A DNA stretch of 64,000 nt from Alphaproteobacteria bacterium. Lineage in GTDB: Bacteria > Pseudomonadota > Alphaproteobacteria > RF32 > CAG-239. How positions within the stretch are numbered: the first letter of the stretch is position 1; every line of letters starts with the position of its first letter. The translations under genes were made by a program, and so were the position numbers. Shown here in pieces: positions 5,957 to 10,905 of this stretch. The DNA lies in contig DBFWPL010000023.1 in the NCBI GenBank assembly GCA_048463395.1, positions 20,583 to 84,582 on the forward strand, in the 5' to 3' direction. The notes beneath the pieces were generated by a model. It saw nothing but the letters and a program-made list of their open reading frames with translations. It had not been told where the DNA came from and searched no databases.

Positions 5957-7228
5957 TTACAGCTCTTTTCCCATAGATTTCAGCATTTTCTTCCGAACGG
6001 CATCTTTTGAAATTTCAAAACGTTTCTTCTTGGCATACAATCTGCCCCGAGCATTGCATTTTTCGTACATTCGCCGGAAACAAGCCACTTCTCGGGAAAT
6101 TTCCGGATTATCATTTTCATTAAAACAATGCCAAAGTTCGGCCAACGTCGTTGAGTTCTGCAAATCGTTATAAAAATCCAAAAGACAATCGCCCTTGGTC
6201 CAAACCGTATTTTTTTGAGCTTCGGCATATTCAGGATACCATTCAAACCCCTGACCGTCTTTCGAAACATCATCATCAAAATAAAAATAATTCAAAAACT
6301 GTTCCTTGTTATAACCATGCCGGCTTACCTGTTTTTCCGTATATGTAACCAACTTTTCAAAATCAGGACGCATATCTTCCGTCATAAAATCCCGACGCAC
6401 GTTTTCCATACCTCGTTGTTCCCAATTTTCCAACATCCTTACCAAAATCGGATAAGTATTGTAAAAAGCGTCATAGGTTCCGGCACCTTCAACAAACTTT
6501 CGCTTGGAAGCTTTCAACAGCAGTTCCTTATTTCTGTCATAATCTTCAGGCGAAAGTTTTAACAAAACACAGGCAAAAGCAAAAATATCAGCATGAGCCT
6601 CTGTCTGATACATATGAAAAATCTCTGCTTCCCGAAAATTTTTCTTTTCTTCCGCCGATATTGTTTCTCCGGCCGATTCTTTATCGGCATAGTCTATTAC
6701 TTGCTGTTTAAACCCGCTAAAACAATTATACCTTTTTTGCAGCACATGACAGGCTTCATGATAAACCGTTTCTGCAGAAAAAAGCGGAGTAGCTTGAGAC
6801 GGAGACCATAAAATTATCGATTCGCCGCAGCCGGAAGAAAAACACCTGCCGACAAAATTTCCGCCGATTCCCTTAACATATTTGGTGTATCGCATTTCTC
6901 CGTTTTCATCAAAACAACACACGGAAGCATTTTCAAGAACAGCCGGTGTCTTGGCTCCGAAAAGAGCGTAACACTTGTTCAAAAAATATGCGGTATCATA
7001 ACTCTTTTTTCTTAGCCCGCAGCCGTCTCTCTGAATCATCTTGTCATAATTAACAAACAACGTTTGAAAGTCTGCATTGTTACAAAGCATTTCTATTTGT
7101 TTCAAATCTTCCGAAACAAAAGTTTCAACTTCCTCAGCAAACTTGGAAACATGACAAAAAGGATAACAGCCCTGTTTGATATAGGCTTTAATATCTTCTG
7201 TTATTTGCTTTTTTGTATAATCAAACAT
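5957..7228 (-). CDS. hypothetical protein with HExxH zincin-like motif
   Basis: 423 aa. HEACH lies at nt 6746-6760 within AETVYHEACHVLQ, and a candidate third ligand EAHAD lies about 45 aa downstream. I recognise no family. Last gene of the operon, 8 nt after the VirD4/TraG-type coupling protein (T4CP) stop. Confidence 0.7.
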   Translation of the reverse strand: MFDYTKKQITEDIKAYIKQGCYPFCHVSKFAEEVETFVSEDLKQIEMLCNNADFQTLFVNYDKMIQRDGCGLRKKSYDTAYFLNKCYALFGAKTPAVLENASVCCFDENGEMRYTKYVKGIGGNFVGRCFSSGCGESIILWSPSQATPLFSAETVYHEACHVLQKRYNCFSGFKQQVIDYADKESAGETISAEEKKNFREAEIFHMYQTEAHADIFAFACVLLKLSPEDYDRNKELLLKASKRKFVEGAGTYDAFYNTYPILVRMLENWEQRGMENVRRDFMTEDMRPDFEKLVTYTEKQVSRHGYNKEQFLNYFYFDDDVSKDGQGFEWYPEYAEAQKNTVWTKGDCLLDFYNDLQNSTTLAELWHCFNENDNPEISREVACFRRMYEKCNARGRLYAKKKRFEISKDAVRKKMLKSMGKEL

Positions 7229-7236
7229 TTAACGAA

Positions 7237-9579
7237 CTATTTGTTAAAAGGATTTTCTGAAGAAGAATCAGAAACGGAAAAAGCCTCTTCTTCCAACCAC
7301 CAGTCTCCGTCTTTTCCCGGAGTAACTTCTCGAAGCTCTTTCTTTTGATAAGCCTGCCAACGTGAAGAAATATCATCAACCATCACACTTTGTTCGTCCG
7401 GAGTTTCCTGCATATTTTCAACCATTTCATCATACCTGTCTTCCAGATAATTATCAATGTCTTCTTCCTTATTAACGGAAATTCCCCCGTCTTTGAGCAC
7501 ATCAAGCAGCTGCGGAATCTCTATATCCTGAGGATTCCGTTTCTCAACAACTTTTTCATCCAAAAGATAACAACTGTCCAAAGCGGCCTTGCTTTTTAAG
7601 CTTTCGTCTTTCAAAAAGAACATTGAATTGACTTTAATCGGCAAATGATAAAAACCTTCCGCCAATAACAAATGCTGTCCTTTTTTTACCTCGGAAAAAC
7701 GAGACCTGTGCAATAACCCCTGAGCAATGCGATGATAATAATTGGCATCTGCCAAACCTTTCCTGACCTTATAAAAAGCTCCGGTATCGACAGAGGGGAT
7801 TTGCACCGATTTCGTCCCGTAAACCGCCAGCTTGTTAAAATGCTCTCCCAACCGCTGATTGTTCTCGGCAAACATTAATTTATACGAAGTCGCACTGATT
7901 ATCTCTTCCAAACCTTCAACACCGTAATTGTTTTGAATATTTTTCAAACCGTCCGTTAACAATAAAAAGGACATATTTCGATCCGGACCATGAGTAAGCC
8001 CTTCCGATAACTGAGTGAATTTCGGCAACCGTTCAAAATCATCCATAACAAACATTAATGGAATCTCTTGACCCTCATTTTCCTGAAGATTTTTTTCAAT
8101 CAGCATATCAACAAAAAACTTAACCATAAACGCGGATGAACGACTGTCTGCAACCGTATAGAGAGTAACCGGCTGCGTTTTTCCTGTTTTGGAAACCATC
8201 CCCCGTACCTGATTAAGAGAAATATCACTCAATGAAGTCCGTTCCCTGACCGAATTTTTTCGAAAAACCGACAACGGAGCCAACATTAAGGTAAAAATAA
8301 TTTTTCTCTGCTTGCGGGAAAGATAATATAAATGCTGCATAATCTGCACCGCTCGGGAATTATAGCCGAAGAAAACCGCTTCATTTAAAAGCTCTCCCAA
8401 CAAAATTTTCCACCCTCCGGCTTTTTCCGGATCATCATTTTGCATAACCCTAAAATATCGCTGAATCAAACAATCGGAAAACATTGCCAAACTAAATTCT
8501 TTTCCCTGCCAAGATACCGGAACGTTTTCCCAACTCCCGATCGGAAGATAATTATCAATATTCAACGTTCCCTCGTTCAAATGTCTGATTACCGATTCGG
8601 TATATTTCCTCGGCATAAGAGCATAATAGCTGAGTAATATATCTTTGTCTTCGGGAGATAATTTTCCCTTGTCCAAAAGCTCGCTCAAAAAATAATCATT
8701 GGCACAAGCCTGATCTATTTTTGAACTGTAAAATTGCAGCAACCCTTCCATTGCGGCACAAGCCATTTTCTCCCAATAATTATCTTTTTGTTTTGGCAAC
8801 AAATATTGGGCAATTCCGGAAAGATATTTATCCCGTTCTTCTCCTTTGGGCGGCATTTCCTTTTCAGACAAAGGATTCCATCTGGGCCAATATTCACCTT
8901 TTACCGGATTATCCGTTAATCCCCAATTAAAATAAAACACCTTTCCCAATTGGGAACGATACCCGCTGGTATATTTTACCAAAGCCCCGCTGCACTCAAC
9001 GGAAACGATACTCGCTTTATCGCTTTCTAAAATAGACGGAATGGCAACTGCCGTCGTTTTTCCCAGTCCGGGAGCCCCCCATACAAATACGGATAGCGAT
9101 TTTTTCAACTTGAGGACACTGCCTTGAAATCGTCCCAAAACCATCAGGAAACCGGAAAGGATTCCCATTAGTTTAACATCTTCCAATTTTGCATAACGAT
9201 TATTCAAACGGTACCACAAAACAAAGGAATAAGGACTTTTAACATACGAACCATAAACAATGATACAAAAAAGCAACAGCGGAATCACCGGTACAAACGA
9301 CGCCGCCCGCAGCTGTGAAAAACGAAAAGCCAAGGAAAAAACCCGCCACCACTCTGCATAAGCCGTAAACAAAAACAACGGCTCATGAAACAACCTTAAA
9401 ATAAAATCGCCGATTTGATTAATCGTAACCTTACTGATGCCTTCCTGCATCAAATGAGCTATGGAAAGACAAAACACTCCGGAAATATAAAAACAAACAA
9501 AAGCCCAAAGCAAAAGCAAAAATACCCATAAAAAAAATCCTTTCTGATTTTTATCTAAAGTATATGCTTTTTCAATCAT
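7237..9579 (-). CDS. type IV secretion coupling protein, VirD4/TraG family (orphan)
   Basis: 780 aa with N-terminal TM helices. Walker A GAPGLGKTT (nt 9052-9078) sits in the VirD4-like context ...SVFVWGAPGLGKTTAVAIPSILESDKASIVSVECSG..GKVFYFNW..WNPL. Walker B is LMFVMDDFERLP (about 8032-8062). The C-terminal tail is acidic. Confidence 0.85.
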   Translation of the reverse strand: MIEKAYTLDKNQKGFFLWVFLLLLWAFVCFYISGVFCLSIAHLMQEGISKVTINQIGDFILRLFHEPLFLFTAYAEWWRVFSLAFRFSQLRAASFVPVIPLLLFCIIVYGSYVKSPYSFVLWYRLNNRYAKLEDVKLMGILSGFLMVLGRFQGSVLKLKKSLSVFVWGAPGLGKTTAVAIPSILESDKASIVSVECSGALVKYTSGYRSQLGKVFYFNWGLTDNPVKGEYWPRWNPLSEKEMPPKGEERDKYLSGIAQYLLPKQKDNYWEKMACAAMEGLLQFYSSKIDQACANDYFLSELLDKGKLSPEDKDILLSYYALMPRKYTESVIRHLNEGTLNIDNYLPIGSWENVPVSWQGKEFSLAMFSDCLIQRYFRVMQNDDPEKAGGWKILLGELLNEAVFFGYNSRAVQIMQHLYYLSRKQRKIIFTLMLAPLSVFRKNSVRERTSLSDISLNQVRGMVSKTGKTQPVTLYTVADSRSSAFMVKFFVDMLIEKNLQENEGQEIPLMFVMDDFERLPKFTQLSEGLTHGPDRNMSFLLLTDGLKNIQNNYGVEGLEEIISATSYKLMFAENNQRLGEHFNKLAVYGTKSVQIPSVDTGAFYKVRKGLADANYYHRIAQGLLHRSRFSEVKKGQHLLLAEGFYHLPIKVNSMFFLKDESLKSKAALDSCYLLDEKVVEKRNPQDIEIPQLLDVLKDGGISVNKEEDIDNYLEDRYDEMVENMQETPDEQSVMVDDISSRWQAYQKKELREVTPGKDGDWWLEEEAFSVSDSSSENPFNK

Positions 9580-10812: not shown

Positions 10813-10876
10813 ACAAACATTAAGCTCCGGATAAACAATCAGATTAACGGAAGCTTTCTAAGCAACCGTATTTGTC

Positions 10877-10905
10877 ATATTAACCTAACAAATGAATTTT
10901 GACAA
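10877..10905 (-). promoter_or_regulatory. sigma70-like promoter of the pentapeptide/T4CP/HExxH operon
   Basis: The minus strand reads TTGTCA (10905-10900), a 17-nt spacer, then TAATAT (10882-10877). It lies about 65 nt upstream of the ATG at 10812. Confidence 0.5.

Follow-up and report, generated by a model that had tools for sequence, protein, structure and literature searches.

An undescribed branch of VirD4-type coupling proteins paired with a pentapeptide-repeat protein in uncultured Alphaproteobacteria

Coupling proteins act as the gate through which substrates enter type IV secretion and conjugation machines, alongside which they are normally encoded. Those of the VirD4/TraG type (type IV coupling proteins, T4CPs), such as A. 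tumefaciens VirD4, R388 TrwB and Rickettsia RvhD4, share two transmembrane (TM) helices joined by a loop, a RecA-like domain with Walker A and B motifs, an all-alpha insertion and an acidic C-terminal tail. Some T4CPs work with small dedicated partners that regulate or adapt them, as in Cagbeta–CagZ of H. pylori and DotL–IcmS/IcmW/LvgA of Legionella, and both of these sets lie in or near full gene sets for a type IV secretion system (T4SS). In the dispersed rvh T4SS of Rickettsia, virD4 adjoins virB8–B11 in islet C (PMC2653234). The present study concerns a locus in a 64,000-nt stretch (64 kb; hereafter, the window) of the Alphaproteobacteria bacterium contig DBFWPL010000023.1, in which the gene for a VirD4-type ATPase directly follows that for a pentapeptide-repeat protein (PRP). 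The ATPase belongs to an undescribed VirD4-type branch defined by this operonic pairing and by the lack of adjacent channel genes, and the conserved unit is the PRP–T4CP pair, which is old and vertically inherited. A literature search turned up neither a PRP–T4CP pair nor comparable orphan T4CPs on chromosomes, and no description of secretion systems for this group of gut Alphaproteobacteria.

The locus comprises three minus-strand open reading frames (ORFs) running in one direction, which encode proteins of 406 aa (10812->9592), 780 aa (9579->7237) and 423 aa (7228->5957). The first two are separated by 12 nt, and the T4CP gene is separated by 8 nt from the third, which encodes a protein with an HExxH motif; the coordinates and spacing given for these co-directional ORFs in a preliminary description of the same DNA were reproduced exactly. 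The GC content of the locus (0.39–0.41) resembles that of most of the window (range 0.31–0.475), in agreement with the native composition assigned to it earlier; the chromosomal setting and housekeeping flanks described then hold as well, apart from the upstream lipoprotein gene discussed below. The two genes of the conserved pair are as follows.

9592..10812, minus strand: PRP, 406 aa (Pfam Pentapeptide)
7237..9579, minus strand: T4CP, 780 aa (Pfam, AlphaFold2 [AF2] model and Foldseek)

The 780-aa protein is a genuine, though divergent, T4CP of the VirD4/TraG type. Its sequence passed three Pfam models, namely PF02534 T4SS-DNA_transf (E 1.1e-23, 84.3 bits, cut-off 20.1), PF12696 TraG-D_C (3.6e-7, 30.6 bits, cut-off 22) and PF10412 TrwB_AAD_bind (2e-5, 24.1 bits, cut-off 20.5). 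Fold comparisons were required because sequence searches of solved structures nearly missed the protein, with only chance-level matches for the sequence alone and only Cag5 (E 0.09) for the family profile. The best Foldseek matches of the AF2 model (pLDDT 84, pTM 0.78) were H. pylori Cagbeta (8dol, 6e-14) and TrwB (1e9r/1e9s, 2e-7), with target-normalised TM-scores of 0.61–0.66, and HerA, DndH and VirB4 appeared among the later matches. Walker A (GAPGLGKT) lies at residues 168–175 (nt 9055–9078), RWNPLS at residues 233–238 and Walker B (LMFVMDD) at residues 508–514 (nt 8038–8058). Thus, the VirD4/TraG architecture and Walker motifs proposed in the preliminary description were borne out. Within a 25-member family alignment, G173, K174 and D514 were invariant and D513 was present in at least 90% of members; Walker A is intact in the window family and most relatives, and Walker B is acidic throughout. 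None of the family members carries an informative database name.

Two N-terminal TM helices are inferred at about residues 21–45 and 93–113, hydrophobic stretches covered by helices 12–46 and 98–114 of the model. The ~45-residue loop between them, presumably periplasmic, contains the invariant residues P67, Y74 and W77, and this TM1–loop–TM2 layout is common to the T4CP and virB-linked VirD4s in the alignment. The nucleotide-binding domain is RecA-like with an inserted all-alpha domain, and sequence blocks such as TSGYR..G.VF..W..D.P..G..YPRWNPLS are common to the window T4CP and VirD4/TraG T4CPs. Summed over the last 100 residues, the net charge is −17 (relatives reach −48), and this tail includes a conserved DDWWLxExAF...NPF motif at residues 759–778 (~nt 7246–7305), with WW...NPF present in part of the family. 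The T4CP evolves much faster than its housekeeping neighbours (mean distance 0.60 vs 0.10–0.15). Nevertheless, comparison with two sister species indicated purifying selection on all five genes of the surrounding block, the ratio of nonsynonymous to synonymous substitution rates (dN/dS) ranging from 0.01 to 0.11: 0.056 for the T4CP, 0.05–0.06 for the PRP, 0.09–0.11 for the HExxH protein, 0.03–0.04 for the protein encoded upstream of the PRP and 0.01–0.02 for RarA, encoded downstream.

The PRP matched Pfam Pentapeptide (PF00805) in four stretches (E 1.9e-33, 114 bits, cut-off 20.2) and also passed the thresholds of PF13576 and PF13599; no signal peptide or hydrophobic stretch is visible in its sequence. 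The N-terminal 70 residues are of low complexity and variable in relatives, with a conserved SWxAVS motif. Repeat block 1 (~residues 75–170) is separated from repeat block 2 (~residues 196–240) by a conserved ELQxLIEYLAKYxPHKLNL segment that we take to be helical, and the second block is followed by a conserved ITPQQIAQALGRVP segment, a charged region and a basic, Arg-rich tip, NSRDRSRD (~nt 9595–9630). The last 30 residues are Arg/Lys-rich and net positive in seven of eight deep lineages (+3 to +12). Between distant clade members the PRP is better conserved than the T4CP (53–61% vs 37–42% identity), and a role as a subunit therefore fits better than one as an effector.

Tandem A(D/N)LXX-type repeats are shared with MfpA/Qnr, the type III effectors PipB/PipB2 and HetL. 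Unlike these proteins, the present PRP family has two split repeat blocks, a long charged C-terminal region with a basic tip and an obligate linkage to a T4CP. All specific NCBIfam cut-offs were missed (Qnr 40.2 bits vs 240, MfpA 45.8 vs 360, PipB 62 vs 274), and the partial matches to PipB/PipB2 reflect the repeats only. Topoisomerase protectors of the Qnr/MfpA type are about 200 aa long, dimeric and gyrase-binding; such an identity was rejected for the PRP on the basis of the failed cut-offs, its 406-aa length, its two repeat blocks and its long charged tail.

A scan of species-representative genomes identified 27 loci, all from uncultured Alphaproteobacteria, with stated sources in animal gut or faecal material (deer, chicken, Hadza human) and the closest T4CP at 91–92% identity. 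All 27 share one gene order: a GFO/IDH/MocA gene on the opposite strand, a gene for a ~600-aa lipoprotein, PRP, T4CP, rarA, a variable stretch, rluC and asmA. T4CP identity among them drops to 32%, whereas the rarA orthologues, found downstream of the T4CP in every gut-clade locus reaching that far, stay at 85–98%; the PRP–T4CP gap is −11 to +26 nt. When 1.84 billion representative proteins were searched with a T4CP profile, 173 matched at E <= 1e-30 and 4,407 at E <= 1e-3, grading without a break from the gut family into T4CPs of canonical appearance. The context of nine full-length relatives revealed a PRP directly upstream in seven (P0264, P0256, P0260, P0263, P0269, P0267 and P0289), with gaps from overlapping to +56 nt, and the P0253 locus is arranged like the window. 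By inspection, a 159-aa protein in the place of the PRP in the reduced-genome relative L041 resembles the conserved segment plus the second repeat block.

With the 55 loci added by a metagenome scan, a census could be taken of the 81 loci in which the T4CP is preceded by 900 nt or more of sequence. A PRP gene lies directly upstream in 75 of them, and in one more (L065) it is masked by an ORF-start artefact. In 73 of the 75 PRP-linked loci, the gap between the two genes lies between −38 and +27 nt. The T4CPs of these 75 loci fall into 19 clusters at a 50% identity threshold and 33 at a threshold of 70%, and the pairing reaches deep relatives at 28–30% T4CP identity. The exceptions without a PRP are L032, the virB-linked loci L038, L040 and L056, and L081, a contig at 1.5x coverage. 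Because its neighbours do not vary freely, the T4CP is not simply the canonical VirD4 that the preliminary description had considered as a possibility. In L032 (2888–6963) and L033, a T4CP of the P0277 group occurs in a housekeeping context without a PRP and with no virB gene in view; it is followed 4 nt on by a gene for a 393-aa putative lipoprotein and then by one for an LpoB-like lipoprotein. In L086 and L096, the genes of the block from the upstream lipoprotein through PRP and T4CP to rarA are all split into several ORFs; these splits are probably assembly or sequencing errors, given that housekeeping rarA is broken too.

The full VirB2–B11/VirD4/MobA set of an Erythrobacter plasmid, which itself carries a relative of the T4CP, was compared by tblastn with the window and 97 loci (1.53 Mb). 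VirB matches were found in L038, L040 and L056 only, and never in a PRP-linked locus. Within the window, VirB2–B6, VirB8–B11 and the MobA relaxase had no match. A Pfam scan of 44 window proteins, representing nearly all non-overlapping ORFs of at least 150 aa, likewise detected no T4SS or relaxase family member apart from the T4CP itself. The earlier statement that the 64 kb contain no VirB/Trb channel, relaxase or mobile-element gene thus agrees with both searches, which did not include Dot/Icm-specific probes. The nearest canonical relatives are alphaproteobacterial VirD4s in virB8-virB9-virB10-virB11-virD4 clusters. The nearest sequenced relative with such a cluster is Roseiterribacter gracilis (L038, GIL40080.1), and L040 has a further virB8–11-D4 cluster with a DNA methylase gene and many small unannotated ORFs downstream. 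In a rough, midpoint-rooted neighbour-joining tree, the PRP-linked proteins form a group separate from the virB-linked proteins.

Dispersed T4SS genes are present right beside this T4CP family: in L056, virB8 and virB9, with no further virB gene, lie 2 kb downstream of a T4CP gene whose chromosomal surroundings include flgE. Positions 5785–16254 of this metagenome contig (60% GC) contain flgE, two genes of unknown function, T4CP, two more such genes, virB8 and virB9, followed by opposite-strand ORFs without a Pfam match. The L056 T4CP shares 45–47% identity with the P0266/P0277 group, which lacks a PRP, and 41% with PRP-linked P0260; the locus has the look of an islet of a dispersed T4SS, within a group that is sister to the PRP-linked family. 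The Rickettsiales rvh system shares with our locus an alphaproteobacterial host, vertical inheritance and a chromosomal place, and its islet-split genes recall L056; unlike rvh, with virD4 beside virB8–B11 (PMC2653234), no PRP-linked locus has a virB gene beside the T4CP. Matches to the window T4CP were found in 17 of 72,556 plasmid records, all at <= 29% identity. Native composition, conserved synteny and this near-absence of plasmid relatives led us to reject a recent insertion or mobile element. PRP-linked T4CPs differ from VirD4/TraG T4CPs in general in that they stand beside virB or relaxase genes in none of the 75 loci, have a PRP ahead of them, are core-chromosomal and are nearly absent from plasmids. 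Their partner, presumably a beta-helix, is unrelated to CagZ or IcmSW, although Cagbeta is the best fold match of the ATPase.

A promoter-like site precedes the PRP gene.

10905-10877, minus strand: sigma-70-like promoter TTGTCA-17-TAATAT, in the 114-nt gap between the upstream lipoprotein gene and the PRP gene

The preliminary description had called this promoter near-consensus. Its sequence and place are real, but the match is unexceptional: it covers 9 of 12 consensus positions, such sites are common in the region (32 found vs 22.4 +/- 5.4 expected), and the motif alone is therefore not significant. However, a ~50-nt block containing the promoter is nearly identical in the window and two sister species (L001 and L002), with two differences, one between the hexamers and one just after the −10 hexamer, both outside the hexamers themselves, whereas the flanking genes of the three species have synonymous divergence (dS) of 0.5–1.2, near saturation of synonymous sites. 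Downstream of the promoter is a GGAG Shine–Dalgarno sequence. A short inverted repeat, ACGG...CCGT (~10838-10876, minus strand), lies just downstream of the promoter block; its outer bases are fixed and its inner bases vary among the three species, and it may form a hairpin in the 5' untranslated region of the PRP–T4CP transcript.

The third gene of the locus and its downstream neighbour are as follows.

5957..7228, minus strand: HExxH protein, 423 aa; accessory gene in the slot between T4CP and rarA
4595..5905, minus strand: rarA, recombination-associated AAA+ ATPase, annotated from the translated sequence; 51 nt after the HExxH gene

The preliminary description had treated the HExxH gene as part of a conserved triad. 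The patchy distribution of this gene rules out a conserved three-gene unit: the triad does not co-occur across relatives, whereas the PRP–T4CP pair does. Among the 27 species-representative loci, the gene was confined to the window, L001 and L002 (84–89% identity); it is absent from other clade loci, in which T4CP directly abuts rarA. Distant relatives at 20–26% identity occupy the same slot in the metagenome loci L066 and L088, and in L066 (12357–15007) two tandem, highly diverged paralogues, each ~20% identical to the window copy, lie between T4CP and rarA. Given that the T4CPs of L066 and L088 are 43–46% identical to that of the window, the HExxH family evolves faster than the T4CP. In more distant lineages, the T4CP is followed by unrelated genes, the products of which have signal-peptide-like N-termini in L032, L037 and L039 and include a radical-SAM protein in L036. 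No intergenic terminator-like site was found, and rarA may be co-transcribed with the upstream genes.

The HExxH protein has a Cys-rich N-terminal half and a basic C-terminus, and no signal peptide is visible in its sequence. The motif HEACH occupies residues 157–161 (nt 6746–6760), within YHEACHVLQ (residues 156–164). HExxH, E210, G248, G250, Y256 and N257 were invariant among six sequences down to 20% identity. A downstream Glu (E210) thus accompanies the motif, although no recognised peptidase family was matched. Pfam, NCBIfam, PADLOC and PDB-sequence searches gave no significant match, a profile search of solved structures was empty, and a search of 5.8 billion proteins found only two matching clusters. 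The protein is a candidate cargo or effector outside the conserved core.

The gene upstream of the promoter and its divergently transcribed neighbour have the following coordinates.

10927..12708, minus strand: TolC/NodT-like outer-membrane factor (OMF) lipoprotein with a SPOR-like C-terminal domain; 593 aa if translation begins at 12708, the likely start (longest ORF to 12783)
12863..13882, plus strand: GFO/IDH/MocA oxidoreductase (Pfam GFO_IDH_MocA 8.3e-32), divergently transcribed context gene

This lipoprotein had been counted among the housekeeping flanks in the preliminary description. Its fold, an orthologue in locus L029 and its presence upstream in 50 of the 68 PRP-linked loci with enough sequence instead identify it as a TolC-family OMF-like protein with a SPOR part, co-conserved with the pair. 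The absence of a channel nearby therefore holds for VirB/Trb only, not for channels generally. The putative lipobox Cys (C20) is invariant. The window protein fails the Pfam OEP threshold (14.4 bits vs 22, E 0.033), and the L029 orthologue passes it (8.6e-25, 88 bits); the two aligned by blastp over ~500 residues (E 6e-20) and over the SPOR-like C-terminus (9e-9). The AF2 model, built from a shallow alignment (pLDDT 79), contains long helical hairpins and a C-terminal beta-alpha-beta-beta-alpha module (strand 521–527, helix 530–543, strands 553–559 and 562–570, helix 577–585). This module falls within the SPOR-like part (~residues 519–593, nt 10930–11154), which scored 20.3 bits against the Pfam SPOR cut-off of 21, and the relative P0208 has PF05036 on record. 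The top 44 Foldseek matches in the PDB were all OMFs (TolC/OprM/CusC/NodT-type), the match being modest (E 8.5e-5 to 6e-2, target-normalised TM-score 0.3–0.48), and a profile search of solved structures found nothing. Long strands are missing from the model at the expected beta-barrel regions (~75–99 and ~265–297), where the shallow alignment behind the model should be borne in mind, and by inspection the first hairpin region spans ~29 aa in the window protein vs ~60 in that of L029.

A block of divergent GFO gene, OMF-SPOR gene, PRP and T4CP recurs in the distant lineages L029/L030, L037 and L042 despite differing surroundings, the GFO/IDH/MocA gene adjoining the OMF-like gene in L029, L037 and L042 too; the window GFO/IDH/MocA protein and its L029 counterpart share 67% identity. 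In L037, the OMF and PRP genes have an opposite-strand gene between them. In L029, positions 2307–8882 encode OMF-SPOR, two HlyD/RND-type adaptors and a 715-aa fusion of an M50 intramembrane protease (daptide/YydH-like, 7e-46) with a HlyD-like domain; PRP and T4CP follow directly on the same strand. This set of membrane-fusion proteins (MFPs) and M50 protease could be part of the same machine or, equally, a separate peptide-export module sharing the OMF. The highest mirror-tree correlations were T4CP–OMF (r 0.89, partial 0.69) and T4CP–PRP (r 0.84), which is weak evidence because the housekeeping controls evolve too slowly to remove shared phylogeny. TolC/NodT OMFs share with the window lipoprotein a lipobox-like Cys and long paired helices; unlike them, it has a C-terminal SPOR-like, putatively peptidoglycan-binding domain and shorter-looking hairpins, and unlike TolC/NodT systems, the gut-clade locus lacks an MFP or an ABC, RND or MFS pump, with the T4CP in its place. 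The OMF-SPOR protein is a possible, unproven partner of the PRP–T4CP pair.

We tentatively favour, at a little less than an even chance, a T4CP–PRP coupling complex that feeds a channel encoded elsewhere. The preliminary description had offered two alternatives, a recruitment module serving a T4SS encoded elsewhere and an independent membrane ATPase system, and each keeps a fair share of the probability here. The locus would then represent a vertically inherited two-protein coupling complex, consisting of a membrane-anchored VirD4-derived ATPase and a dedicated cytoplasmic PRP whose production would be translationally coupled to that of the ATPase. The PRP might serve as a stoichiometric partner of the T4CP, either adaptor or gate, in the manner of CagZ on Cagbeta or IcmS/IcmW/LvgA on DotL, and could dock by its basic C-terminal tail and DNA-like beta-helix on either the ATPase's acidic tail or its all-alpha domain. 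The basic C-termini of the PRP and HExxH protein and the acidic T4CP tail would fit, and do not prove, tail-mediated recognition by the T4CP. The ATPase would spend ATP to recruit protein cargo and push it over the inner membrane, and in this genus the cargo may include the fast-evolving HExxH protein from the variable downstream slot. The onward channel would not be encoded at the locus, and dispersed VirB-type genes seem slightly likelier to provide it than the TolC-like lipoprotein.

Several observations weigh against this coupling complex. No gene for VirB4, VirB6, VirB8–11 or a relaxase was found within ~10 kb of the 75 PRP-linked copies, and even in Rickettsia virD4 stays beside virB8–B11; the existence of a T4SS elsewhere is thus an assumption. 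The T4CP is far under the NCBIfam equivalog cut-off for VirD4 (PRK13897, 50.1 bits vs 728) and also under those of conju_CD1115 (72.7 vs 250) and TraG (PRK13876, 41.6 vs 674). Some relatives have altered motifs (Walker A SLKT in L037, Walker B LDN in L036), and the candidacy of the HExxH protein as cargo draws on position, rate and charge only.

We consider it doubtful, yet worth serious attention, that no VirB-type channel exists at all and that the ATPase and PRP form a free-standing machine, perhaps plugged into the TolC-like peptidoglycan-anchored protein and aided in some lineages by HlyD-type adaptors. Stated as an envelope machine independent of any T4SS, in which the VirD4-derived ATPase, the PRP and the TolC-like peptidoglycan-binding lipoprotein would carry out type-I-like export powered by a T4CP, joined in one lineage by HlyD-type adaptors and the M50/HlyD fusion, it appears unlikely to a similar degree. 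The distribution of virB genes, in none of the 75 PRP-linked loci vs three of the six loci without a called PRP, speaks for such a machine, as does the place of the pair in the conserved core chromosome of a small-genome clade (one relative's contig measures 1.95 Mb), nearly absent from plasmids. The GFO/OMF-SPOR/PRP/T4CP block survives rearrangement in L029, L037 and L042 besides the gut clade, L029 packs OMF, both MFPs, M50/HlyD, PRP and T4CP on one strand, the OMF-like fold is supported and the T4CP–OMF distances gave the best mirror-tree correlation, with the weakness described above. However, the upstream OMF gene is missing from 18 of the 68 PRP-linked loci, the OMF and PRP genes are split by an opposite-strand gene in L037, and the window PRP gene has its own conserved promoter. 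The gut-clade locus also lacks an MFP that could link the inner membrane to the outer one, the L029 set of MFPs and M50 protease is similar to a maturation and export module for peptides of the ribosomally synthesised and post-translationally modified type and may merely share the OMF, and by inspection the beta-hairpin regions of the window OMF look shorter than those of L029. We know of no T4CP that works without a T4SS, which further counts against this machine.

The PRP might instead be the translocated substrate itself, a conserved effector recognised via a basic C-terminal signal. Its basic Arg-rich C-termini do resemble VirB/D4-type translocation signals, and pentapeptide-repeat effectors exist in other secretion systems; nevertheless, we regard this as improbable, since effectors tend to vary more and to be less tightly linked, whereas the PRP is more conserved than the ATPase and the two genes often overlap, and since L041 keeps only the helix and the second repeat block, with a C-terminus that is not Arg-rich. 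A role in DNA handling or cell division, with the ATPase as an FtsK-like septal translocase, the PRP as a DNA-mimic regulator and SPOR targeting the outer-membrane partner to septal peptidoglycan, appears equally remote. T4CPs share the FtsK/HerA fold, with HerA and VirB4 among the structural matches, some PRPs (MfpA, Qnr) mimic DNA, the neighbouring protein has a SPOR-like domain, and mipZ adjoins the pair in L029, L030 and L037, as rarA does in the gut clade. Against this stand the clustering of the protein with VirD4 rather than FtsK, its much faster evolution than the housekeeping neighbours and the unmet Qnr/MfpA cut-offs of the PRP, and the adjacency of mipZ and rarA differs by lineage and so may be chance. 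Finally, the altered Walker A and B motifs of some relatives and the fragmented genes of L086 and L096 could suggest a decaying, now functionless remnant of an old conjugative element or T4SS. The dN/dS values of 0.05–0.06 for T4CP and PRP rule out a pseudogene remnant, full-length genes with conserved motifs and promoter occur in dozens of species, and rarA is fragmented too in L086 and L096, which points to assembly errors; we therefore consider decay highly improbable.

The remainder of the window is largely housekeeping. Its proteins with Pfam matches include AsmA, RluC-like, TruA, RecX, Hsp33, CarD, YchF and Pth, as well as PNPase, TruB, IF-2, NusA, RimP, LptF/G, RNR, ComM-like, HslUV and AddA-like proteins, among others. 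Four ORFs of 205–345 aa (29683–30720, 30758–31477, 58609–59619 and 16286–16903) gave no Pfam match, two of them scanned at E <= 1e-5 and two at E <= 1e-3. An Rfam scan of the window matched no family, and hence no tRNA or other Rfam RNA gene was detected. A defence system was rejected, given that four proteins of the locus had no PADLOC match. The GC content falls to 0.31–0.36 at 19900–24300, vs ~0.41 elsewhere, where genes for an FkbM-type methyltransferase, a radical-SAM protein and GT8 and GT4 glycosyltransferases lie; this region is probably a surface-glycan or lipopolysaccharide island, acquired or fast-evolving. At 52595–55105, between a ComM/Mg-chelatase-like gene and hslVU, is the gene for an 836-aa protein in which a C-terminal trypsin-like peptidase is the sole recognised domain and the first ~630 residues have no assignment. 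Between 46000 and 57000, the GC skew climbs from about −0.25 to about 0 where genes turn to the plus strand; elsewhere in the window it is strongly negative, matching the mostly minus-strand genes.

Our results reveal a T4CP branch with a fixed PRP partner; its 19 clusters, defined at 50% identity, were drawn from assemblies of human gut, rumen, deer gut, chicken gut and other environments. Should these genomes encode a dispersed T4SS at another place, the PRP would be a new kind of T4CP accessory subunit, and host- or neighbour-directed secretion with a candidate zincin-like effector would be indicated for common uncultured gut Alphaproteobacteria. If there is no T4SS, this would be the first T4CP to work outside one, possibly with a TolC-like outlet, and a free-standing machine of that kind would constitute a new secretion or translocation route that combines type IV and type I components and is conserved in the core genome of a whole alphaproteobacterial group. 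Either way, pentapeptide-repeat proteins, the functions of which are mostly unknown, gain a concrete and testable partner.

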